UHGV virus genome: UHGV-0367612
DNA from: a virus
Length of the DNA stretch: 64,000 bases
Reading direction: 5' to 3' (one strand)
Shown here: in pieces, positions 1-62,054 of the stretch
Numbering within the stretch: the stretch's first letter is position 1
Layout: each line of letters opens with the position of its first letter
The notes under the pieces: generated by a model
Told to the model about the DNA's origin: nothing
Databases searched by the model: none
Seen by the model: only the letters and a program-made list of their open reading frames with translations
Program-made: the position numbers and the translations under genes

Positions 1-509
1 CTCATGAACTCATCAGTGATAGGTCCAGAAATAACCTTATATCCAGGACAGTATACTTTTCCCAAAACTGCTTTTGCCATCTTTGCCCCTGATCTTAATA
101 GAAGGTCAAGAGTATCATCTTCTGGATCTGCTTCACAGAATTTCCTTATGTCTTCTTCCTCTATCCCAGAATAAATCAAAAGCTCTAACCAGAAATGAAG
201 AGCGTCTGAACATTCTTCGTTGAAATTCTGAAGGAAAGGCATCATCTTATCTCGGGTATCTCCTCGTGAGAATTGCATCATCAACTCATCATAGGATTCA
301 TAACCCTCTCCAAGCTCTTCAATAACTCTCCCCACAAAATCCTTGATTAAGGTTTGTGAAGATTTTAAATTCACATCTACTGGGTACTGAGGTAAACCTT
401 CTATCTTTATATAAGAGTTCAATAACTCTTTTTGTAACCTGTACATCTCAGTTAATCCTTGACCCATAGGATAAACCACTTCTACTTTCGAATAATCCCT
501 GATATCCAT
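1..509 (-). CDS. MazG-like nucleoside triphosphate pyrophosphohydrolase (all-alpha NTP-PPase), 5'-partial (runs off window)
   Basis: Minus-strand ORF starting at ATG (complement of 507-509) and open to position 1. Translation is MDIRDYSKVEVVYPMGQGLTEMYRLQKELLNSYIKIEGLPQYPVDVNLKSSQTLIKDFVGRVIEELGEGYESYDELMM...SDALHFWLELLIYSG. The EExGE ... D-x-L-helix pattern is typical of MazG and dimeric all-alpha NTP-PPases such as T4 gp56 dCTPase. Family call by eye only. Confidence 0.35.
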   Translation of the reverse strand, partial: MDIRDYSKVEVVYPMGQGLTEMYRLQKELLNSYIKIEGLPQYPVDVNLKSSQTLIKDFVGRVIEELGEGYESYDELMMQFSRGDTRDKMMPFLQNFNEECSDALHFWLELLIYSGIEEEDIRKFCEADPEDDTLDLLLRSGAKMAKAVLGKVYCPGYKVISGPITDEFM

Positions 510-511
510 TT

Positions 512-913
512 TTAATCTTTATTTGGTTTATAATACTTTTTAATTATCTCTCTTAATCTCTCTGAATCAATGTTTAATTCCCGGGATAGTTTTAATCTTA
601 TCCTGGCTTTGGAATAACCCTTAGACTTATACTTCTCAATCAATCTCTTGGCTTCTTTGGCATCCTTCTCATTCAAAAATTTGGCTTCATCCAAATCTTT
701 AAAATCTTTCTCTTTTGCCAAGAGCTCTCGTTGGAGTTTGTTATTTTGCATCTGAGCTATGGCACATATTTCGATGTCCCCACATATCTTACAATCCTTA
801 TCTCTTGGGTCATATTGTGTCCCAAAACATGGATCATCGGGTGTACCTATCTTACTCAAATCTATGGGTTTAGACAAATCTATGGTCTCTTCTTTTTTCT
901 TACTCTTTGCCAT
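512..913 (-). CDS. hypothetical protein with CxxC-type metal-binding cluster (CFGT...CKICGD..C), basic C-terminus
   Basis: 133-aa ORF. Cys cluster PCFGTQYDPRDKDCKICGDIEIC. Lys/Arg-rich coiled C-terminal half. Confidence 0.4.
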   Translation of the reverse strand: MAKSKKKEETIDLSKPIDLSKIGTPDDPCFGTQYDPRDKDCKICGDIEICAIAQMQNNKLQRELLAKEKDFKDLDEAKFLNEKDAKEAKRLIEKYKSKGYSKARIRLKLSRELNIDSERLREIIKKYYKPNKD

Positions 914-3461: not shown

Positions 3462-4407
3462 AAGTCAAGAACTTATGCTTCCTAATCCTCCTTATGGTTT
3501 CTTTTTTACCAAGGTCATTAACATCTAAGTAACTACCATCCTTCTTTTTATCTTCCCAGTATACCACTCTCACCTTCTTAAAGTTCACTAACTTTAATGC
3601 GAGGTTTATGCTTTCTATTAAAGCATCTGGGTCTAATAGTAAATCTATAGCCTCTACTGGAGAAGATAGTATAGTATTGATCTGCCACTCAGTTAACAAT
3701 TTCCCAGCTGTTGCTATGGCTGTATCCCCAATTGTCTCAGCGTTAAATGCTCCCTCACATATTTGGATTCTCTTGTAAATATATAAAGCCTCTATATTAT
3801 ATATCACGTAAGCTTTACCTAATCCCACATCATTAGCAATGGGGTTCTTATATTTTGTCAATCCCCCAAGTAACACTTTCCTGGCATTAAAGTATACCAA
3901 CTGATCGTGCATAATGTAAGGGATGATGACATAACCCTTATAAGGACCTGAATCACAATAACCAAATCCTTTCTGTGATAACTTAGCTACTGAGAATCCC
4001 CTTCTCTTTAGATACTCCCTACATTTCCTTGCTACCAAGTTTGTACCGAATATGATGTTGTGGAACCCTTCTGGGAGTTCTAAGCCTTTGACTTTGTTAT
4101 TTATGGTTAGCTCTGACTCTGGTAACTTTATGTGTAACATATCCCAGTCCTTTGAGAAAATTACTTCCCAAGCTTCTTTCTCTGTGTCTGAGTTAGTTAT
4201 TTCTTGTACAGCTTCAATTATAGGTTTATTATACCCACATCTAAAACAATGGGTATCACCAGTTATGGGTTTTACTCCAAATTTATCTTTGGCTCCACAA
4301 AAGGGGCAAGGCATATTAACCCAACCCCTTGCTTTAGGTTTACCTCCCAATGTATGAATAAACCAACCATATAAATGTTTGATTGTTTTCTTACTGTACC
4401 TCGACAT
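3394..4407 (-). CDS. DNA primase (DnaG-like: zinc ribbon + TOPRIM)
   Basis: CPFCGAKDKFGV...HCFRCG zinc ribbon at the N-terminus. TOPRIM-like ICEGAFNAETIGD and DLLLDPDA acidic motifs. Confidence 0.6.
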   Translation of the reverse strand: MSRYSKKTIKHLYGWFIHTLGGKPKARGWVNMPCPFCGAKDKFGVKPITGDTHCFRCGYNKPIIEAVQEITNSDTEKEAWEVIFSKDWDMLHIKLPESELTINNKVKGLELPEGFHNIIFGTNLVARKCREYLKRRGFSVAKLSQKGFGYCDSGPYKGYVIIPYIMHDQLVYFNARKVLLGGLTKYKNPIANDVGLGKAYVIYNIEALYIYKRIQICEGAFNAETIGDTAIATAGKLLTEWQINTILSSPVEAIDLLLDPDALIESINLALKLVNFKKVRVVYWEDKKKDGSYLDVNDLGKKETIRRIRKHKFLTYGELINYKMDVNHGRKYSILKK

Positions 4408-4921
4408 AGATTTCCCTCCTAATTATCCTGTCTATTGTCCTTCTGGATACTCCATATTTCTTTGCCAGCTCTGTATGTGTTGACTCACTTTCCCTTATCT
4501 TTATAACCTGTTTTTTGGTTAATTTAGATTGTGGGTGCTTACTACTACTCAATAAATATTTATTTCTCCCATCCCTTTTACATTGCTTCATATTTTCTGA
4601 CTGAGTTCCCCAGTATAGATTGTCCAGGTTTGAGTTCATGGGATTATTGTCTTTGTGACAAACCATAGGTTTATTACTTGGGTTTGGTATATAGGTTATA
4701 GCTAACAACCTATATAATAATTTAGGTACACCATATAAGTTTACCTTGGGTCTATACTCTCCTCTCTTACTTCTATATTTATATACAGAAATTTCTACCC
4801 AACTACCAGTTACTTTAGAAAATACCCTGCCCTCTTTGATTATTCTATAATCTGGATACCCAGGTATCTCTTTGCTTTTATCAAAGATCTCCTTCAGTAT
4901 TTTGTCCTCTATCTGCTTCAT
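4391..4921 (-). CDS. HNH homing endonuclease (NUMOD4 + HNH_3 + C-terminal HTH)
   Basis: EIPGYPDYRIIKEGRVFSKVTGSWVEIS matches the NUMOD4 pattern I-P-G-[FY]-x-x-Y-x-[IV]-S-x-x-G-x-V. HNH core VCHKDNNPMNSNLDNLYWGTQSENMKQ. C-terminal HTH ELAKKYGVSRRTIDRI. It is a paralog of the endonuclease inside the terminase intein. Confidence 0.7.
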   Translation of the reverse strand: MKQIEDKILKEIFDKSKEIPGYPDYRIIKEGRVFSKVTGSWVEISVYKYRSKRGEYRPKVNLYGVPKLLYRLLAITYIPNPSNKPMVCHKDNNPMNSNLDNLYWGTQSENMKQCKRDGRNKYLLSSSKHPQSKLTKKQVIKIRESESTHTELAKKYGVSRRTIDRIIRREIYVEVQ

Positions 4922-38055: not shown

Positions 38056-40518
38056 TTAAATCGGATTTGTTACTAAGTTTTTCTTACCTTTTCTGATATA
38101 GTTAGTTATGGCTTCAGCCATTATGCAGTCATCTGTGTATACTGCATCATCATCGTAGATGTTATCATCGTTTGCCTTATCTTTACCCATTGCCACTGGC
38201 CTATTTCTGGAATCGAATATGAATGTATATGACTCATCCACAAAGAATTTGTTACATATATTCACTTGGTCAAAACGGATATCTTCTTCTAACTCATCTA
38301 TAATAATTGGTCTAGTGGATGTGGTTGTATACCAACCTGGGATATCTTCTACCTCAGGCTTACTTTTACCTTTCTTTTTCAAGAGTTTTTTGGCGTAATA
38401 CAAGTTAGGATAACCGTGATCCTGAATCTTAGAAGTTACTGCCAACCCAATATCATTTGATTCTGGTGCTATCAAAGCATTGTTGAAACGTTTACCGGTA
38501 TGCATGAGGAGGTTTGCATACTTAGAGGGATTTATCTTTCCCCTAAAATAAGCTAACTCCTCCCCATACCGGTTCATAACAGAAAATGCAGAATAGTCGT
38601 TTGCTCTACCAATAGCAACGTCTGCTCCGATAAAGCATCTCTCACCAGGTTTAGCGAAACGTCGTATGAAAAGTTTCCCATTCTGTTCAATGGAAATATA
38701 ATCATCTGGATAAGGTAAGCATTCCTCTATTGCTCTGATACAATTCAAATCGAATACCGTATTACCTGAAGAAAGGAAGTCACCATCAATCTCCTGTGCT
38801 GTTCTCCTTGGACCCAGTGACTTAGCCATCGAGTTATACCACTCCTCGTTTCTTTCAGGGTGCATTTGCCAATACAACCGAATAGGATTGAAATAACTAT
38901 CTCCATTTTTGGCATCAACCCATTGTTTGTGAAAGAAGTTCCCAATACCCATTGGCGTGTTATGGTTGATATACAGCGAGTTACATATATAAGATTGATC
39001 CTCTTCTACTGAAATATCATATATGTTCTCATAGGTGACGTTCACTAATTTTAACTTAGAAATATTCACCTTTGTAACCCTCTTGTTGTTTATAACTCTA
39101 CTGATATATGAAGCATTTACTCTTAACCCTAATTCATCTTCAATCTCTCTCATAATAATCTTAGATGAACCATAGGAGTTACCATACTTTTGATACTTCT
39201 CTTTTATCTTACCTATCAATAAGATATCTGGAAATTTATCACCCACACTTGGAGCAACTTTAAATGTGGGGGAAAGGTTTACTGCTCTCTTAGTATTTTC
39301 TGATTGAGATAGTATTTGTAAGTTTGTTACATAATTATGAGAATGGTCACAATCTATATGGTCTACTACATAACCTTCTGGAATATCACCTATAAATAAT
39401 TTAGCTACTAATCTTGATACTGAAAAGTTCTTACTCTCCCCATTTGCCCAAAGCTTAAACCTATAATACCCAGAATTACCTAGTATGGGTTCTTTCTCTA
39501 TCAGAGAATCACCATCCTTTATATATAACTTACCCCAGTTAGATAACATATATTTTGGATAACCAGGTATATTCTTGAATATCTCAATACTTGGTTTCTC
39601 GGTTTTTTTTGTTTCTAACTTCTTAAACCCTGTATCAAAGGTTATTATATTTAAACCTTCTCTAACAATTCTACCTACTGACCTCCAACCCTCTGTAGTA
39701 TATAATTTATGAGCTGGAGTACATCTCAAAGTATTTCCTTGTTCATCTTCTACTTCCCAGGTTTTCAATATACCTTTGTTCACAGAGTGTGTTACTTTTC
39801 TCCACTTACCAGTATGTGATAATACTTCTATCCCTAAATGAGATATATCTTTTATCCCCATTTCTTTTGGGCATACAGTATCAATTCTCAATGGTCCTTC
39901 TTTTGTAACTATTTCAGTATCACCTGTAACGCAAGAGTTTAGGATAGCACTACCTCCAGTTGATAGAGTGGGGAATGCTGCTGCCCAGATCCTATCAGCC
40001 CATCTTACAATTGCCGCCTCGTCTATCACAAGAAGAGAAACTGCCTCTGAACGACCGGCTTCTTCTGTTGTGGGGACTGATGTTATTGATGACCCATTCA
40101 CAAACTCAAGTACTGTGGCAGTACCAAATGAGTCTCCACGTATTTGAGTTACAGGAGTTTGTAACCATTCTGGCAGGTTTTTGTACATGTACTTAATCCT
40201 TTTCAAAACTCTCTTTGCAACCATATCCTTGATCGAGATAATCTGGATATTCTTGTTGTCATTAAACATGGCTAACCATAAGCAAAAGAAAGCGATAAGC
40301 TCTGTTAAACCTGCCTGACGAAACTTAAGTATGATGTTGAAACGGTTGTTCAGAAAATTCCAGAGAACTGCTCTCTGGTATTCGTAGAGTTTGAATTGTA
40401 CTTTACCCTTAACAGGATGAATGATATACACAAAGTTTGCAAGGTAGAATGGATTTACCTTGCATGTCCTGTATATTTCAAATTGTTCCTTCGTAAGAGT
40501 TACTATCTTTTTCTCCAT
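38056..40518 (-). CDS. terL: terminase large subunit, interrupted by an intein
   Basis: Exteins carry Walker B LLVIDEAA and the terminase motif STGGSAILNS|...|TPMGIGNFFH. The inserted segment between Ser195 and Thr521 has intein hallmarks. Confidence 0.85.
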   Translation of the reverse strand: MEKKIVTLTKEQFEIYRTCKVNPFYLANFVYIIHPVKGKVQFKLYEYQRAVLWNFLNNRFNIILKFRQAGLTELIAFFCLWLAMFNDNKNIQIISIKDMVAKRVLKRIKYMYKNLPEWLQTPVTQIRGDSFGTATVLEFVNGSSITSVPTTEEAGRSEAVSLLVIDEAAIVRWADRIWAAAFPTLSTGGSAILNSCVTGDTEIVTKEGPLRIDTVCPKEMGIKDISHLGIEVLSHTGKWRKVTHSVNKGILKTWEVEDEQGNTLRCTPAHKLYTTEGWRSVGRIVREGLNIITFDTGFKKLETKKTEKPSIEIFKNIPGYPKYMLSNWGKLYIKDGDSLIEKEPILGNSGYYRFKLWANGESKNFSVSRLVAKLFIGDIPEGYVVDHIDCDHSHNYVTNLQILSQSENTKRAVNLSPTFKVAPSVGDKFPDILLIGKIKEKYQKYGNSYGSSKIIMREIEDELGLRVNASYISRVINNKRVTKVNISKLKLVNVTYENIYDISVEEDQSYICNSLYINHNTPMGIGNFFHKQWVDAKNGDSYFNPIRLYWQMHPERNEEWYNSMAKSLGPRRTAQEIDGDFLSSGNTVFDLNCIRAIEECLPYPDDYISIEQNGKLFIRRFAKPGERCFIGADVAIGRANDYSAFSVMNRYGEELAYFRGKINPSKYANLLMHTGKRFNNALIAPESNDIGLAVTSKIQDHGYPNLYYAKKLLKKKGKSKPEVEDIPGWYTTTSTRPIIIDELEEDIRFDQVNICNKFFVDESYTFIFDSRNRPVAMGKDKANDDNIYDDDAVYTDDCIMAEAITNYIRKGKKNLVTNPI
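38959..39933 (-). mobile_element. intein (325 aa) with NUMOD4/HNH homing endonuclease, inserted in terL
   Basis: Begins CVTGDTEI (the block-A Cys is the first residue after ...ILNS). Ends ...SLYINHN followed by the extein Thr (His-Asn + Thr/Ser/Cys). Internal NIPGYPKYMLSNWGKLYIKDG is NUMOD4-like. VVDHIDCDHSHNYVTNLQILSQSENTKRA is an HNH core. Boundaries were checked at nucleotide level: gca 39931-39933 encodes the Cys, gtt 38959-38961 encodes the terminal Asn. Confidence 0.7.
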
Positions 40519-41189
40519 ATCCTAAACTTTAATCCAACCTCTAATCTTGGTTTTTCGTTAAACAATAGAACCTCAGAAGCCCGGAGAAACATGAATGAAT
40601 TGTTATTAAACCGATAATCTAACTGAAACTCTCCGAATGGCTTTTCCCGTAAAAAATCCAAACCGAAAACAAGAAAATAGGAAAGCCTTGGCTCCTGAGG
40701 TCTGTATTTTGTTTTCGAATACCCCATAACTCCTGATGCCCAATGATAGTTGTAATCCTGGTAAAACAGGTTATAGTGTTCCGAATAAACTTGTCCGTTA
40801 ATTCCAAGAAGAGAAATGTTAAGTGAATCTCTGAATAAACTCATTTCCACTAACTTTGGGTTTTGGGGATAAAGCTTTAGGAAATTCTCAGAAATCTCTA
40901 TCTCTTCCTGTAATCCTTGGATGATGAAACTGTAATGAAGGCTGTCCTTCAAAATCCTTAATTCCAATTCCTTTATTCTGGATGAATCTTCCCGGTAAAT
41001 CGTTACTCTATCAGGTTTCAGTGTATCTCTGATGATTTTGATTTCAGGATAAGGTTTTGAAATGAAGATTGTATCTGTAACCACCTTTACATGGGGATTT
41101 GGTGATTCAGATTTGTTGGTTCTGAATCCGAGATAAAAGGTTAAAGCCAGTATCCCAATGATGGTTATGATTTTGATTGTTGTCTTCAT
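40503..41189 (-). CDS. secreted / membrane-anchored beta-rich protein (signal-peptide-like N-terminus) overlapping terL start
   Basis: 228 aa. The N-terminus MKTTIKIITIIGILALTFYLGF is hydrophobic. It occupies the slot where a small terminase is usually found, but has no TerS-like features. Confidence 0.4.
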   Translation of the reverse strand: MKTTIKIITIIGILALTFYLGFRTNKSESPNPHVKVVTDTIFISKPYPEIKIIRDTLKPDRVTIYREDSSRIKELELRILKDSLHYSFIIQGLQEEIEISENFLKLYPQNPKLVEMSLFRDSLNISLLGINGQVYSEHYNLFYQDYNYHWASGVMGYSKTKYRPQEPRLSYFLVFGLDFLREKPFGEFQLDYRFNNNSFMFLRASEVLLFNEKPRLEVGLKFRIWRKR

Positions 41190-41285
41190 CCATGTTTCCT
41201 GTTTGGTTTCAGTGTATTAGAACCTCGAAAGTAAAATTTTATCAGTTCTAGAAATCAGGGAAAGGATATCGCGTGTATGCGTATA

Positions 41286-41434
41286 GACTAGGCTTAGGAT
41301 TAAGCTTAAAGATAGAGTTAGAGAAAGAGTAAGGTAATAATTTTTAGGCTTTAGCCTAAAAATACTTAGGATACGTAGTATCCTAAGTTTATACTCTTTT
41401 CTCTTTCTAAAAAGGATATTACGTAGTAATATCC
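41286..41434. repeat. cluster of four or more perfect palindromes (candidate operator / pac / terminator region)
   Basis: ttaagcttaa at 41300-41309. tttttaggc-ttta-gcctaaaaa at 41341-41362. cttaggatac-gta-gtatcctaag at 41365-41387. ggatattac-gta-gtaatatcc at 41414-41434. The last two share the core GGATA..TACGTAGTA..TATCC. Confidence 0.6.
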
Positions 41435-41455
41435 CAAAAAGGTTTTCTCTTCTCT

Positions 41456-42466
41456 CTAAATAAACTTTTTGTGTCTGAAAATCCATTCCAATGATTGTTT
41501 TATCCATGTCCCTACTTCATAAGGGGGGCACTTAGCTACTGTAGTACGGCCTTTGTTTATCCAATAGTTGATGTTCTCCCTCTCTGCATGGATTATGAAT
41601 TCATCAGGTATTCCCTGTATCCTAGCTAATTCTCTAGGACTCATCTGATAACCATCGGGATTGAATTGTCTGTTTGATTTCCTAGCTACTTGAGGATATG
41701 AATGCTTCAGGTTTCTGTAAACACCCGGTGCAGAAGAGTATTTACGTTTACTAGCTATGAATCTCTTTTCATTCGGATGATCTATCCAATACCTTCTTAC
41801 TTCAGATAATGTCATCTTAAATCCGGCATACATAGTTACTTCAGAATTTATCAACTCAGTGATATGTCCCCAAGGTATAGAATGGTTGTTGGATTTTAAT
41901 CCTTTTAACAAAATTCCAGTAGTTTTAGGCTTATGTTCTTTAAATTTCGTGATGTGTTTCCATATCAGTTTATGATTAACTGGGAAATCTTTCCTTATAC
42001 CCATCACTATAAGCCTTATTCTCCCAACTTGAGAATTCCCAAACTTTAACACTGAGCCAGTTAAGTAATGTAAGTGGTATTCTTCACTAAGCCATTTTAT
42101 CTCCTTAACAGAATATTTGGCTTTCGGTAAATTCTCCATGAAAAATATACTCGGTTTATAGGTTTTTATCTGGTCAAAGAACATGGCAAATGAATCATTA
42201 TCAAGAGGATTAGAGAATTCTTTTGCCCTTGTTAAAGCCATCATTGATGATGATCCACAATCTGGTGCTCCCACTATCACATCTGGGAAATCAAATACTT
42301 CTTCAGGTTTTTTGTAGAATGGTATACCTTCAAAATTCCTATTCCACTGGATATTGTTTTGAGTATGGAATAAACTCCTACTCTCAATATTTCCAGTAAG
42401 GTTGTCTTTCATTGGGTATAACCAAGAACCATTACCCCCACATACTGCTAAAATTTTGTGTTTCAT
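41456..42466 (-). CDS. C5-cytosine methyltransferase-fold protein with non-canonical motif IV (DCG instead of PCQ)
   Basis: Motif I-like ILAVCGGNGSW (FxGxGG). Motif IV-like VIVGAPDCGSSS (canonical GGPPCQxFS). Motif VI FFMENLP (ENV). Motif VIII-like GRIRLIVMGIRKD (QxRxR). Confidence 0.5.
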   Translation of the reverse strand: MKHKILAVCGGNGSWLYPMKDNLTGNIESRSLFHTQNNIQWNRNFEGIPFYKKPEEVFDFPDVIVGAPDCGSSSMMALTRAKEFSNPLDNDSFAMFFDQIKTYKPSIFFMENLPKAKYSVKEIKWLSEEYHLHYLTGSVLKFGNSQVGRIRLIVMGIRKDFPVNHKLIWKHITKFKEHKPKTTGILLKGLKSNNHSIPWGHITELINSEVTMYAGFKMTLSEVRRYWIDHPNEKRFIASKRKYSSAPGVYRNLKHSYPQVARKSNRQFNPDGYQMSPRELARIQGIPDEFIIHAERENINYWINKGRTTVAKCPPYEVGTWIKQSLEWIFRHKKFI

Positions 42467-42640
42467 ATTAATTGTTTTTATTTTGCAATAGTTGGTATTG
42501 CCAAATCTATCATTTGGATGGGTAAATATTGAATCTAGAAGAAAATTATTGAGTAAAAGCTAAGTTAATTCATTGGCCCTAAAAAGTTTAAACTAGATAA
42601 CTCTTTCTATCTTGGTTCTAATAATCCTAAAATCAAACAA

Positions 42641-44607: not shown

Positions 44608-45672
44608 ATGTTACAGTACTTAGAGTTATTAAAGAAAGTCCATGTTTTAGGGACTTATAGAAAGCCGGCAAGAGAAGGGATGCCTGCTTCTAAGAATTTA
44701 TTCGGTGAGATGATGGAAATTGATTTACGTGATGGGTTTCCATTATTAACTACTAAAAAGATGGCTTGGAATGCTATCAGGGTAGAGTTATTATGGTTCT
44801 TGAGAGGAATACCAAACCTAAGGTATTTATGGAGATATAATGTACATATCTGGGACCAAGATGCTTATAGGTTTTACAAGAGAAAATGTGAGACTTATAC
44901 GAGGACTCCCATATCTACTTACATGAAGACTCCATTATCTTATGAGGGTTGGTTAGAGAGATTATGGGTTATGAGAAATGGTTCTTTCTGGGAAAGAAAT
45001 CAGGACTTTGACAAGATGACCTATATGGGAGCAGTTTACCCAGCTCAATGGAGAGGTACATTTGTTTTTGGAGGGTCTTCTCATACTGATCAAATCCTAT
45101 ACATGATAGAGAATATCCGAAATAATCCTACGAGTAGATACCATATAGTTGATGCTTGGAATCCTATGGATATTGACCTGAACAAAAGGACTCCAGTGTT
45201 AGCTTTACCACCTTGTCACATGAGCCACCAAATCTTGGTAGATGTGAAGAGTGGTGAGTTTGATATGCTCATGTACCAGAGAAGTGCAGATATTTTCTTG
45301 GGAGTACCATTTAACATAGCTAGTTATGCTTTACTATGTTACTTCTATAGCATGATGACTGGATATCAACCTAGGTATCTCAAAATGATTTTTGGAAGCG
45401 TTGATTTATATGAAACTCATTTTGAGCAAGCAAGAGTTCAATTGAACAGAGATCCCAAGTTATTACCGAGATTAAAACTATTACCAAATGAGAATGGTGT
45501 TATGGATAGAGTGATGGAGTTCAATATGAAGGCTAAGGAGTATTATGATAACCCCACTCATTCGAAGTTAAATGAAGTGGTCAATACATTACAACCTTCA
45601 GACTTTGAGTTAGTGGGATATGACCCACATCCTGCAATAAAAGGGAAACTAGATACTGGGTTAGGAATCTAA
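44608..45672 (+). CDS. thyA: thymidylate synthase family enzyme (ThyA-like; TS or dUMP hydroxymethylase) with large small-domain insertion
   Basis: Strong identity to E. coli ThyA blocks: LQYLEL..V...G (N-terminus), DGFPLLTTKK, PPCH catalytic Cys, MLMYQRSADIFLGVPFNIASYALL, GYDPHPAIKG. About 45 extra residues lie between IWD and YPAQWR. The pyrimidine-specificity Asn in PFNIASY is retained. Confidence 0.85.
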   Translation: MLQYLELLKKVHVLGTYRKPAREGMPASKNLFGEMMEIDLRDGFPLLTTKKMAWNAIRVELLWFLRGIPNLRYLWRYNVHIWDQDAYRFYKRKCETYTRTPISTYMKTPLSYEGWLERLWVMRNGSFWERNQDFDKMTYMGAVYPAQWRGTFVFGGSSHTDQILYMIENIRNNPTSRYHIVDAWNPMDIDLNKRTPVLALPPCHMSHQILVDVKSGEFDMLMYQRSADIFLGVPFNIASYALLCYFYSMMTGYQPRYLKMIFGSVDLYETHFEQARVQLNRDPKLLPRLKLLPNENGVMDRVMEFNMKAKEYYDNPTHSKLNEVVNTLQPSDFELVGYDPHPAIKGKLDTGLGI

Positions 45673-60904: not shown

Positions 60905-61248
60905 AATCCTAAATACTTTTCTAGTTCTGCTTCTTCTTTTAATTCACGTAATTGCTTACGAGTCGTTTTCTTTTTACTTTGAAGCTCTTTAATTTGTCTC
61001 TGTAAATCCTCCACTGCCGCTTCAATATCATAAGGATCATTCCCATCCACTGAAGTCCCAGTATAAATCTCACCCTTGGGAACCTTAATCCCATAATCAG
61101 ATAAACTCTTGTCCCGATATGGATAGGGAATAGTAATCTTCCCGTAATTCTTTGGAGCATCCCACTTTTTCTTCATCTCGGTTTCATTAATCCCATATAC
61201 ACATGATATGAGAATCCCTATCAATACTGCCACTACGTATTTCATCAA
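60901..61248 (-). CDS. secreted/lipoprotein-like small protein
   Basis: 115 aa. N-terminus MMKYVVAVLIGILISCVYG is signal-peptide-like with a Cys. Basic coiled-coil C-terminus. Confidence 0.4.
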   Translation of the reverse strand: MMKYVVAVLIGILISCVYGINETEMKKKWDAPKNYGKITIPYPYRDKSLSDYGIKVPKGEIYTGTSVDGNDPYDIEAAVEDLQRQIKELQSKKKTTRKQLRELKEEAELEKYLGL

Positions 61249-62054
61249 TAATTGAATAAGTGATCCAAGACCTGTCTATCTAACCCAATCTCTTTTGCCG
61301 GTTTCAAGTCAAACTCATGGTTTAACTGGTAGTTAAATCCATTATAGACGTAATAGTCATTGCAAATGGCTATCTTGTTTTTCTCCATTTCCAATTTGAT
61401 CCGATCTACAATATTCTCTCTATAAGTTCCCGGGAATCCAGTTTCTTCAATAACATCCACTACCCGATCTTCAAATGATCTTCTAACCTTTTGAGATTCT
61501 AATTCTCGGAATGGGTAAATTGCCTCTTCAAACCTGTTGATAAGGTCATTGGCTGAGTCCAAGAGATATTCCGGATTGAGCATCTTTTCTAAGGCTTCTG
61601 TGTGTAACCCCTTGACATGAATCCCAGCACCTTCCGGAATGCACATCCCATTAGTGCATATTTGCCGGTAAATGGCTGCGGTCATTTGGAATTTCATTGA
61701 CCCATCATAGGAATTGTAAAAACTCAATTTCGGGTGTAATGAATCTACTCCCTCCATTTTAACCTTTTGGTCTTTGAGAATCAAATCCAATCGAGTGATA
61801 GCCCCACCCTTAATGAGTTTAGCCTGAGGTTCTACCTTGAATTTATCAGAAAATAATTCAATGATAGGTTGAAATACTACCTTATTCTCAACCAAGTGGT
61901 ATTTCTCAGAGCAAAAATTCACTATTCGTGCATTCTCTGTTCCTGGATTGACAATCACTGCATACTCATTGCTGGAATTAACCTGAATCCCCGGTATCAA
62001 TTCTGATACCTTTCTTTTAATAACTGGTTGGTAAATCTGTTCTAACGTACTCAT
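61245..62054 (-). CDS. hypothetical protein
   Basis: 269 aa, the largest protein of the early array. Promoter block upstream. Confidence 0.45.
   Translation of the reverse strand: MSTLEQIYQPVIKRKVSELIPGIQVNSSNEYAVIVNPGTENARIVNFCSEKYHLVENKVVFQPIIELFSDKFKVEPQAKLIKGGAITRLDLILKDQKVKMEGVDSLHPKLSFYNSYDGSMKFQMTAAIYRQICTNGMCIPEGAGIHVKGLHTEALEKMLNPEYLLDSANDLINRFEEAIYPFRELESQKVRRSFEDRVVDVIEETGFPGTYRENIVDRIKLEMEKNKIAICNDYYVYNGFNYQLNHEFDLKPAKEIGLDRQVLDHLFNY

Follow-up and report, generated by a model that had tools for sequence, protein, structure and literature searches.

The stretch of 64,000 nucleotides from the virus genome UHGV-0367612 that we analysed (hereafter the window) carries on its minus strand, at positions 41456 to 42466 with the stop codon included, an open reading frame (ORF) for a protein of 336 amino acids, the MTase, which has the fold of the C5-cytosine methyltransferases (C5-MTases). 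The original prediction for this ORF had described such a fold with a retained catalytic cysteine, a motif IV in which Asp-Cys-Gly (D-C-G) takes the place of Pro-Cys-Gln (P-C-Q), and a nearby toolkit for the modification of pyrimidines. We find that the altered motif IV is the signature of a clade confined to phages, and that it comes with a lysine in motif X that covaries with it. We put at about an even chance the reading that the MTase is an active, phage-specific orphan enzyme, i.e., a post-replicative DNA cytosine-C5 methylase that depends on S-adenosylmethionine (SAM) and has an alternative pocket.

The ORF list delimits the gene, and the fold is given by PF00145, AlphaFold2 (AF2) and Foldseek. 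In a Pfam search, the protein reaches 57 bits (E=2.8e-15) against a PF00145 gathering cut-off of 22, with residues 59-297 matching positions 57-300 of the 324 in the profile, which bears out the fold and the retained cysteine; motifs I, VI and VIII lie where they had been predicted. The AF2 model, built with 51 homologues, has a mean predicted local distance difference test score (pLDDT) of 92 and a predicted template modelling score (pTM) of 0.90, and its sole disordered stretch (residues 73-80) comes immediately past the catalytic Cys. The best Foldseek matches of this model are 3g7u, HaeIII, CmoX (8yf3), DNMT1 and HhaI, and the top 50 in the PDB all have the C5-MTase fold, 49 being DNA C5-MTases and one human DNMT2 (E from 5e-14 to 9e-10). 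An exhaustive search among 1.84 billion representatives gave only 167 proteins with E<=0.001, and a score cliff separates the full-length members of the clade (at least 173 bits) from all others (at most 72 bits). Just beyond this cliff stands a sister group of proteins of 340-420 amino acids. Conservation within the clade was read from an alignment of 51 sequences that are 43-90% identical, and covariation from a set of 198 full-length clade and sister sequences.

The motifs follow one another along the minus strand. Motif I (AVCGGNGS, residues 7-14, 42425 to 42448) is the SAM-binding glycine loop, in which G11, N12 and G13 are conserved or invariant; its adenine-stacking Phe has become Cys9, which aligns with Phe25 of CmoX. 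The motif II region, N-I-E-S-R (42377 to 42391), lies at an AF2 strand (residues 23-27) and has invariant N26, E28 and R30. Glu28 stands at the end of strand beta2, within a GNIE[P/W]R common to the clade and the sister group, and we take it to be the acidic residue that binds the ribose. Motif IV (GAPDCGSSS, 42245 to 42271), spanned by VIVGAPDCGSSS (residues 63-74) and placed by the HaeIII alignment, has invariant P68, C70, G71 and S74: it reads Pro68, Asp69 at the canonical Pro, the catalytic Cys70 (42257 to 42259), Gly71 at the canonical Gln, and then Ser74. Motif VI (FFMENL, 42128 to 42145; FMENLP being residues 109-114) has invariant E111, N112 and L113, Glu111 being the Glu of the ENV motif and the Val being replaced by Leu. 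The motif VI Glu of C5-MTases contacts N3 and N4 of the cytosine; this acidic residue is Glu in 163 and Asp in 35 of the 198 full-length proteins. Motif VIII (GNSQVGRIR, residues 143-151, 42014 to 42040), the arginine motif that binds cytosine O2, keeps the Q-x-R-x-R of the family as Q146, R149 and R151, invariant together with N144 and S145. Motif IX (MSPRELARIQGIPDEF, 41597 to 41644), located from the HaeIII alignment and from conservation, reads SPRELARIQGIPDEF. The equivalent of motif X (INKGRTTVAKCPP, 41522 to 41560, with Lys312 at 41531 to 41533) was placed by conservation, a bridge of hidden Markov model (HMM) alignments, and covariation; N304, K305, R307, K312, P314 and P315 are invariant in it. 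The 51 sequences show no variation in C70, E111, Q146, R149, R151, motif IX or the glycine loop, and we take this as a sign of purifying selection on a working active site.

The change in motif IV is genuine. HMMER aligns GAPDCGSSS beneath GGPPCQSWS of M.HaeIII, with D-C-G under P-C-Q and without a gap, and P-[D/N]-C-G-[H/S]-S-S is found in 120 of the 120 homologues among the matches listed (44-99% identity, all metagenomic), which rules out the alignment artefact that had been named as a possible refutation. In the same homologues, the canonical Pro-Cys dipeptide is missing: Asp or Asn precedes the Cys, and the Pro is one position further upstream. A Gly comes right after the catalytic Cys in 190 of the 198 clade and sister proteins, and a relative in MT121964 that is 35% identical carries P-S-C-G-H-S-S. 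The change is a signature of the clade, far beyond chance. The Gln of P-C-Q, which the original prediction called invariant, is not so in the family as a whole, since natural CmoX has SPPCS. Pmt1 of Schizosaccharomyces pombe has a non-consensus residue in motif IV and is nevertheless an active methyltransferase (PMC3526270), so that a motif IV of this kind is compatible with activity.

The pocket has a second change, which the original prediction had overlooked, in motif X, where the Gly-Asn is replaced in the clade by Ala or Thr at 311 and by an invariant Lys312. This register is agreed by five of five HMM bridge alignments. The alignment of the clade with the sister group (probability 100%, E=2.8e-50) sets A311-K312 over G340-K341 and P315 over P344; the Gly-Lys of the sister group in turn pairs with G349-R350 of CmoX (posterior about 0.8), and R350 of CmoX is equivalent to N304 of HhaI (PMC12783734). 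The junction of the last two helices in the AF2 model, at 312-315, agrees with it. On these alignments, K312 is the predicted counterpart of CmoX R350, HhaI N304 and M.MpeI N374. Two other registers were set aside. Arg307 as the counterpart of CmoX R350 has a posterior of only 0.1-0.3 when the clade is aligned directly with CmoX by hhalign, and was dropped given the bridge and the covariation at K312; a third register, from HMMER against HaeIII, gave way to K312 through the sister bridge.

Residues 69 and 312 change together. Residue 69 is Asp, Asn or Glu in 161 of the 198 sequences, and 160 of these have Lys at 312; 15 of the 16 sequences with Lys at residue 69 itself have N, Q, S, A or R at 312; and two proteins with P-P-C-[K/R] have Asp at 312. 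In a neighbour-joining tree built without columns 69 and 312, which is rough at such divergence, Lys69 occurs in eight groups and Lys312 is also lost in seven of them. The pattern is more than one inherited event. Such repeated covariation suggests that the two side chains are probably in contact, and residues 69 and 312 are probably adjacent in the pocket; in the structure of HhaI, Pro80 and Asn304 are neighbours. We infer that nearly every member holds one cation in the transfer pocket, whereas the canonical P/Q/N pocket holds none.

The genomic setting of the gene is that of a late phage function. The MTase gene is the first of the late operon, before the genes for TerL, the portal and the capsid, in about 40-50 of 57 loci. 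The usual order is MTase, sometimes a protein of about 240 amino acids, then one of about 230 with an N-terminal transmembrane segment, TerL, portal, and head genes. In the window, the interval is occupied by a 228-residue protein with an N-terminal transmembrane-like segment (40503 to 41189, minus strand), found between MTase and TerL in 38 of the 57 loci and without a match in Pfam or PHROG. The MTase gene directly abuts TerL in about nine of the 57, and no small terminase subunit was recognisable in the region between MTase and TerL. Upstream, the neighbour is divergently transcribed in about 44 of 50 loci and belongs to a cluster of variable small genes. A conserved upstream partner was considered and rejected: the divergent neighbour varies in size and family, and an ORF of the MazG-like type stands there in four loci only. 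By gene layout, positions 42467 to 42640 are the divergent intergenic region between the MTase gene, with its leftward late operon, and the rightward small-gene cluster; a promoter scan found no sigma-70-type consensus in it. Some 70 nucleotides past the MTase stop codon, a hairpin with an 11-bp stem and a T-run (41364 to 41388, minus strand) resembles a terminator; this is weak evidence, as one site was found where 1.1 are expected by chance. A low-complexity ORF of 96 codons (LSLTLSLSLILSL, 41217 to 41507, minus strand) overlaps the 3' end of the MTase gene and spans this hairpin, for which reasons it is probably no gene.

The clade is phage-only, and its MTase is an orphan. Among 185,579 species genomes, it was found on just two contigs of metagenome-assembled genomes (MAGs), one of which, at 83 kb, has the size of the phage genomes of this clade. 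With these two contigs and no restriction-enzyme partner, an origin in a bacterial restriction-modification system or a prophage was rejected. In a phage collection, neither the clade nor the sister group had a cultured member, the only entries being two uncultured faecal records. Among other proteins of the genome, the cultured relatives that come nearest are, for PolA, Bacillus phages of the SPO1/SP8/SP10 type (26-33% identity) and, for a thymidylate synthase homologue described below, Clostridium perfringens phages (36%), a weak hint of a host in the Bacillota. A 133-residue protein at 512 to 913 (minus strand) has identical copies in 352 collection blocks, 162 of them with contigs of 50-200 kb. 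This suggests that the phage lineage is common in public data, the names of the samples pointing to human gut cohorts, and that the phage is probably an uncultured inhabitant of the gut.

The toolkit for pyrimidines exists, in another place and with other members than first proposed. The thymidylate synthase (TS) encoded in the window (ThyA, 354 amino acids, 44608 to 45672, plus strand) had been placed two to three genes from the MTase, described as having a large insertion, and counted as part of the toolkit. Some five small ORFs and about 2.1 kb separate it from the MTase gene, which is on the other strand; it is canonical, with insertions at variable sites (PF00303, 239 bits; TIGR03284, 240 against a cut-off of 108). 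Since it passes TIGR03284 and keeps L143, D169 and N177 (C146 is also kept), it is an ordinary synthase of thymidylate (dTMP). A coupling with the MTase was therefore rejected, the two co-occurring in only seven of the 57 related loci. The gene for a MazG-like nucleoside triphosphate (NTP) pyrophosphohydrolase, the third supposed member, is indeed in the window, as a fragment cut by its edge: by translation, positions 3 to 509 (minus strand) encode the N-terminal 169 of 262 amino acids.

We recovered about 10 kb on each side through contigs that encode proteins identical to those at the ends of the window, and window and flanks together cover most of a genome of about 76-85 kb. One flank holds the complete MazG-like gene (10405-11193 of contig L071; phrog_12184 and phrog_173, nucleotide pyrophosphohydrolase), a 260-residue unknown protein, GroES, a second TS homologue (TS2), PolA with an HNH insertion, a ligase, gp32, and UvsX; the other holds SbcCD-like and PD-(D/E)XK genes. 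The toolkit is thus made of TS2 and the MazG-like gene beside PolA, outside the window, and not of ThyA.

TS2 (261 amino acids, L071 12723-13508, about 2.8 kb beyond position 1 of the window) is flanked by GroES and PolA and is near the MazG-like gene. It fails every TS equivalog, the best score being 52 bits against 174, and has R143, S147, H173 and D177, with D169 retained. Under the residue rules of PMC13326640 and bioRxiv 10.1101/2024.12.05.627091, its N177D predicts deoxycytidylate (dCMP) as the substrate, and the retained D169 indicates that it is no 5-hydroxy-dCMP synthase. Its Arg143 is outside the published rule that tells methyl from hydroxymethyl products (PMC13326640). TS2 is present on at least nine of the 17 long clade contigs, counted in the best 80 of 546 matches, and also in MT121964. 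An N177D TS together with a deaminase, a pyrophosphohydrolase of the PRA-PH type and PolA marks phages in which 5-methylcytosine (5mC) or 5-hydroxymethylcytosine (5hmC) takes the place of cytosine ahead of replication, and five of the seven N177D homologues tested made 5-methyl-dCMP and not the hydroxymethyl form (bioRxiv 10.1101/2024.12.05.627091). From its gene content, this phage appears to pre-modify its cytosine nucleotides. No clade locus contained a dCMP deaminase.

The sister group shows a similar association within a single operon. Its proteins have G-H-P-x-C-G-x-[F/Y]-S as motif IV, D-N-L as motif VI and K-Q-T-G-K-x-M-P as motif X, the last being the canonical Q-I-G-N-A-V-P with Lys for Asn. 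In 72 IMG/VR loci (L075-L146), we counted the genes within 10 kb of the sister MTase. A TS2-like gene is there in 59 loci, always on the same strand and at a median gap of 455 bp; a gene of the dCMP-deaminase family in 51 (median gap about 1 kb); an Asn-synthase-like ligase in 47, all within 3 kb; and a MazG-like pyrophosphohydrolase in 23 (median gap 364 bp). CmoA is in none of the 72. TS2-like gene, ligase, and deaminase occur together in 36 loci. The operon is tight and same-stranded, in these loci as in L066-L070, and the literature searches that we ran found no description of it. The link of the MTase to pre-replicative modification is made by TS2 in the same genome and by the TS2-like gene beside the sister MTase. 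Moreover, three of ten scanned sister proteins are fused to an N6/N4 DNA methylase domain, which supports DNA as the substrate.

Other genes that modified cytosines might call to mind were searched for. CmoA was found by tblastn, with SpCmoA and EcCmoA as queries, in none of 58 clade loci, the 72 IMG/VR sister loci, sister loci L066-L070 and the genome flanks; a CmoY/Asn-synthase-like ligase was found by tblastn in none of the 58 clade loci. Pfam searches of 46 window ORFs gave no CmoA, CmoY, ParB, TET or glycosyltransferase domain, and no tRNA genes were found in the window. The composition of the DNA was also considered. The CpG ratio (rho) is 0.38 in the window, 0.36-0.59 in ten sampled clade loci and 0.73-0.96 in sister loci. 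This depletion could be read as a footprint of 5mCpG deamination; TpG/CpA is not raised despite it, hence we rejected this use of it as uninformative. CC/GG is over-represented (1.3-1.8), GCGC occurs three times and CGCG five times in 64 kb, and GATC stands at 0.57 of expectation. Host mimicry, restriction avoidance or an effect of modification could each produce this bias.

Elsewhere in the genome, there are signs of mobile elements. The TerL gene (38056 to 40518) holds an intein of 325 amino acids with an HNH endonuclease domain (38959 to 39933, minus strand), which comprises residues 196-520, from CVTGDTEIV to YINHN, and is followed by Thr. When the intein is removed in silico, 488 of 496 aligned positions match the 495-residue TerL of a 79-kb relative, with AILNS|TPMGIG at the junction; long TerL genes (820-1170 amino acids) exist in eleven related loci too. 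The DNA polymerase outside the window (L071 13486-16758) has an HNH_3 insertion, and a free-standing ORF among the replication genes (4391 to 4921, minus strand), with weak, below-cut-off matches to HNH_3 and to a helix-turn-helix, is possibly a homing endonuclease. Together these three suggest a genome rich in homing elements. A protein of 269 amino acids in the early-gene region (61245 to 62054, minus strand) reaches 48 bits with DUF932, whose cut-off is 23.

How might the MTase work? We propose that Cys70 would attack C6 of a flipped-out cytosine, that Glu111 and Arg149/Arg151 would hold and activate the base, and that C5 would then receive a one-carbon group from a cofactor of the SAM type, which motifs I, II and X would bind. 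The likeliest group would be methyl from SAM, giving 5mC. The walls of the pocket, which studied enzymes build from the motif IV Pro and Gln and the motif X Asn, would be formed instead by the co-evolving Asp/Asn69, Gly71 and Lys312. Since its gene opens the late operon for packaging and the head, the enzyme would reach DNA that is already replicated and not yet packaged, and such a late modification would protect phage DNA from host nucleases. The presence of TS2 and the MazG-like gene suggests that it is probably part of a strategy in which most cytosines are C5-modified before replication; the MTase would then modify the cytosines that escaped replacement, a role that we call completion. 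Two further arguments favour methyl as the group. Variants Y205K and Y205R of M.CviPI methylate with SAM, so that a cation in motif X is compatible with the use of SAM, and the absence of CmoA together with the acidic neighbour of the Lys argues against carboxy-SAM (Cx-SAM).

A number of observations weigh against this reading. First, two of the most conserved features of C5-MTases, Pro before the catalytic Cys and Asn in motif X, are missing, and the protein, at 28.9 bits, misses the cut-off of 100.65 of NCBIfam TIGR00675 'dcm'. Second, should TS2 bring about the replacement of every cytosine ahead of replication, little would remain for a C5 transferase to act on, and completion is a role that we infer. 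Third, phage C5-MTs with an altered motif X (clades III-IV) gave no detectable methylation in E. coli; in these TET-associated clades, the altered motif X is found in the inactive members, and the text mentions no P-x-C-G signature (PMC8256090). Fourth, no member of the clade or of the sister group has been characterised or cultured. Fifth, a Lys that moved between positions 312 and 69 in about seven lineages looks like selection for a functional cation, and a cation there is known in one role alone, the binding of the Cx-SAM carboxylate (PMC12783734, PMC13288465). Sixth, plain methylation has no use for the ligase that closely accompanies the sister group (47 of 72 loci).

These last points open a broader alternative, which we hold only tentatively and as clearly short of even: that the proteins with P-x-C-G and a pocket Lys, clade and sister group together, are an unrecognised phage-only superfamily that installs a non-methyl group on cytosine. 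The chemistry may be the transfer of a carboxyl-bearing group from Cx-SAM or SAM, amidated by the ligase in the sister group, or a displacement at 5hmC, and the enzymes would form with the N177D/R143 TS homologue a new pathway of cytosine hypermodification. For the MTase itself, the transfer of a non-methyl group to cytosine C5 is overall rather doubtful, and we consider it unlikely in its most specific version, with a carboxymethyl group from Cx-SAM made by the CmoA of the host as the top candidate. This would be a second, independently evolved lineage of DNA carboxymethyltransferases; alternatively, another SAM-derived group bearing a carboxylate would be used, and in both cases the pocket Lys would bind the carboxylate. 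The position of K312 recommends it, because the equivalent position sets the use of Cx-SAM in CmoX (PMC12783734), in M.MpeI N374K and in M.CviPI Y205K/R (PMC13288465). Natural wild-type CmoX accepts Cx-SAM alone, whose carboxymethyl group is contacted by Arg350, and the R350N variant is inactive (PMC12783734), and in engineered M.MpeI a cationic side chain at N374 gave the best use of Cx-SAM (PMC13288465). A small residue follows the Cys in CmoX (Ser) as in the clade (Gly), where the canonical enzymes have Gln, and the pocket cation was kept through repeated swaps of position. The ligases linked to the sister group are of the class of CmoY, which amidates 5-carboxymethylcytosine, and SpCmoX functions in E. 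coli on host-made Cx-SAM alone (PMC12783734).

The same pocket gives reasons to doubt such a transfer. In most members, an Asp or Glu stands beside the Lys, which would tend to be neutralised by it, and the acidic residue should repel or compete with the carboxylate of the cofactor. The engineered M.CviPI Y205K/R retain methylation with SAM, which is about 400-fold above Cx-SAM in E. coli (PMC13288465), so that a pocket Lys permits the use of Cx-SAM and is no proof of it. The proteins have no SPPC motif and show no greater kinship to CmoX than to HaeIII (26.6 and 48 bits, respectively). CmoA, which most CmoX contigs have, was found neither in 130 loci nor in the phage genome as covered by window and flanks, and the ligase was found in none of the 58 clade loci. 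Finally, the hints of a host in the Bacillota, weak as they are, do not favour a CmoA of the host, as Bacillota are generally not known to have it.

A quite improbable alternative is that the enzyme acts on 5hmC that was placed in the DNA by way of TS2: after an attack of Cys70 on C6, the hydroxyl would depart, and its place would be taken by a nucleophile that sits where the cofactor was once bound. Such a reaction would explain a C5-directed enzyme in a phage whose cytosines are perhaps already C5-substituted, and it would suit a pocket in which every lining residue differs from the canonical one. Phages that are very distant from one another have both the MTase-like gene and the N177D/R143 TS homologue, and in the sister group the two are neighbours in one operon. 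C5-methyltransferases are reported by the Klimasauskas laboratory to show side reactions on 5hmC in vitro, to which this one would be the counterpart in nature; a natural enzyme of this kind is not known. Residue 143 of TS2 is Arg and not the bulky hydrophobic residue tied to methyl products (PMC13326640). Set against this are the 5-methyl-dCMP made by five of the seven tested N177D homologues (bioRxiv 10.1101/2024.12.05.627091), as 5mC could not be processed in this way, the SAM-binding motifs I and II, which are kept, and the residue before the Cys, which is too variable (D, N, E, S, K, P) for a dedicated acid catalyst.

It is very improbable that the target is something other than phage DNA, i.e., host DNA or an RNA such as tRNA, as with Dnmt2/Pmt1. 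If the cytosines of the phage are pre-modified, host nucleic acid would be the main pool of unmodified cytosine, and a phage with its cytosines already C5-substituted would take no harm from the modification of host DNA; Pmt1, with its non-consensus motif IV residue, methylates tRNA (PMC3526270). Against such a target, the MTase gene stands first in the late operon and not in an early host-takeover cluster, and the relatives fused to N6/N4 methylase domains point to DNA. No RNA m5C methyltransferase family of the RsmB/NSUN type was matched at E<=1 in Pfam, motif VI is ENL, without the second catalytic Cys (Thr-Cys), and human DNMT2 is no nearer than 44th among the fold matches and does not figure among the sequence matches. 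The CFT tripeptide in the target-recognition region is the mark of the Dnmt2 family, and it is missing from the 336-residue sequence. Least probable of all is that the protein is no longer an enzyme and serves as a DNA-binding or packaging-associated factor at the usual slot of the small terminase: the lack of a recognisable TerS, the loci where MTase abuts TerL, and the loss of two hallmark residues of the family would fit, and yet a pseudo-enzyme would not be expected to keep the nucleophile Cys, the motif VI Glu, the two motif VIII Arg and the cofactor loop all invariant, as this protein does, and the sister group sits in nucleotide-metabolism operons and not beside terminases.

Whichever reading is right, two features are taken as near-universal in enzymes as well understood as the C5-MTases, Pro-Cys in motif IV and Asn in motif X, and here a large natural family, confined to phages, has swapped both for a co-evolving Asp/Asn and Lys. 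The Lys occupies the single position at which a switch of cofactor from SAM to Cx-SAM is known. If the product is still 5mC, this would be a second structural solution for the methyl-transfer pocket, and in cytosine-replacing phages the enzyme might serve as a finisher after replication. If the product is another one, it would be a new route of DNA modification, with direct uses in the chemistry of epigenome sequencing, as CmoX-type enzymes have. The operon of the sister group, with its ligase, pyrophosphohydrolase, MTase-like gene, N177D TS homologue, and deaminase, offers a concrete candidate pathway that can be tested.

How does the MTase compare with known systems? As far as our literature searches show, the P-x-C-G and Lys pocket, its covariation, its phage-only spread, and the link to an N177D TS are undescribed; MetaGPA (PMC8670742) mentions neither PF00145 nor Asn synthase. 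By sequence, the nearest solved structure is M.HaeIII (PDB 1DCT, 3UBT; profile E=6.8e-12, 48 bits), which is collinear from motif IV to the C-terminus and has in common the fold, the Cys, the motif VI Glu, Q-x-R-x-R, and motif IX. It differs in that its PPCQ is PDCG in the clade, its GN is [A/T]-K with extra residues in the preceding helix, its ENV is ENL and its motif I Phe is Cys; identity is about 16-18%, and the clade is phage-only and without a partner restriction enzyme. CmoX of Synechococcus phage S-B43 (PDB 8YF3; PMC12783734), a phage-encoded protein of the same fold and a natural DNA cytosine C5-carboxymethyltransferase, resembles the clade in the cation at the position of HhaI N304 (R350 and K312, respectively) and in the small residue after the Cys, and the sister group in its link to Asn-synthase-like ligases. 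Its motif IV is SPPC (S95, P96, P97, C98; SPPCSAFS), whereas that of the clade is [A/H/N]-P-[D/N]-C; its cation is Arg and not Lys; and it usually travels with CmoA (4257 CmoA for 5615 CmoX in the published survey, PMC12783734), unlike clade and sister group in 130 loci. As there is no special kinship with CmoX at 26.6 bits, the cation of the clade seems to have arisen independently, and the survey, which was filtered on SPPC and R350 (PMC12783734), would have excluded the clade proteins.

Laboratory point mutants come closest at the motif X position: M.MpeI N374K and M.CviPI Y205K/R (PMC13288465) have a cation where the clade has K312, but they keep Pro-Cys and retain SAM methylation, whereas the Lys of the clade is natural, invariant, and covaries with the residue before the Cys. 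Pmt1, of the Dnmt2 family, is a eukaryotic methyltransferase of tRNA-Asp C38 with no specific sequence relationship to the MTase. The module of the Xp12 type (bioRxiv 10.1101/2024.12.05.627091) has its likeness here in the N177D homologue, pyrophosphohydrolase, and PolA, side by side; its deaminase is present in the sister operon, and this phage has a canonical ThyA instead. As described, that module has neither a gene of the C5-MTase fold nor an Asn-synthase-like ligase, and the Arg at residue 143 of TS2 is a state outside the published rules. For all these differences, the fold of the MTase and its core chemistry are those of the C5-methyltransferases.

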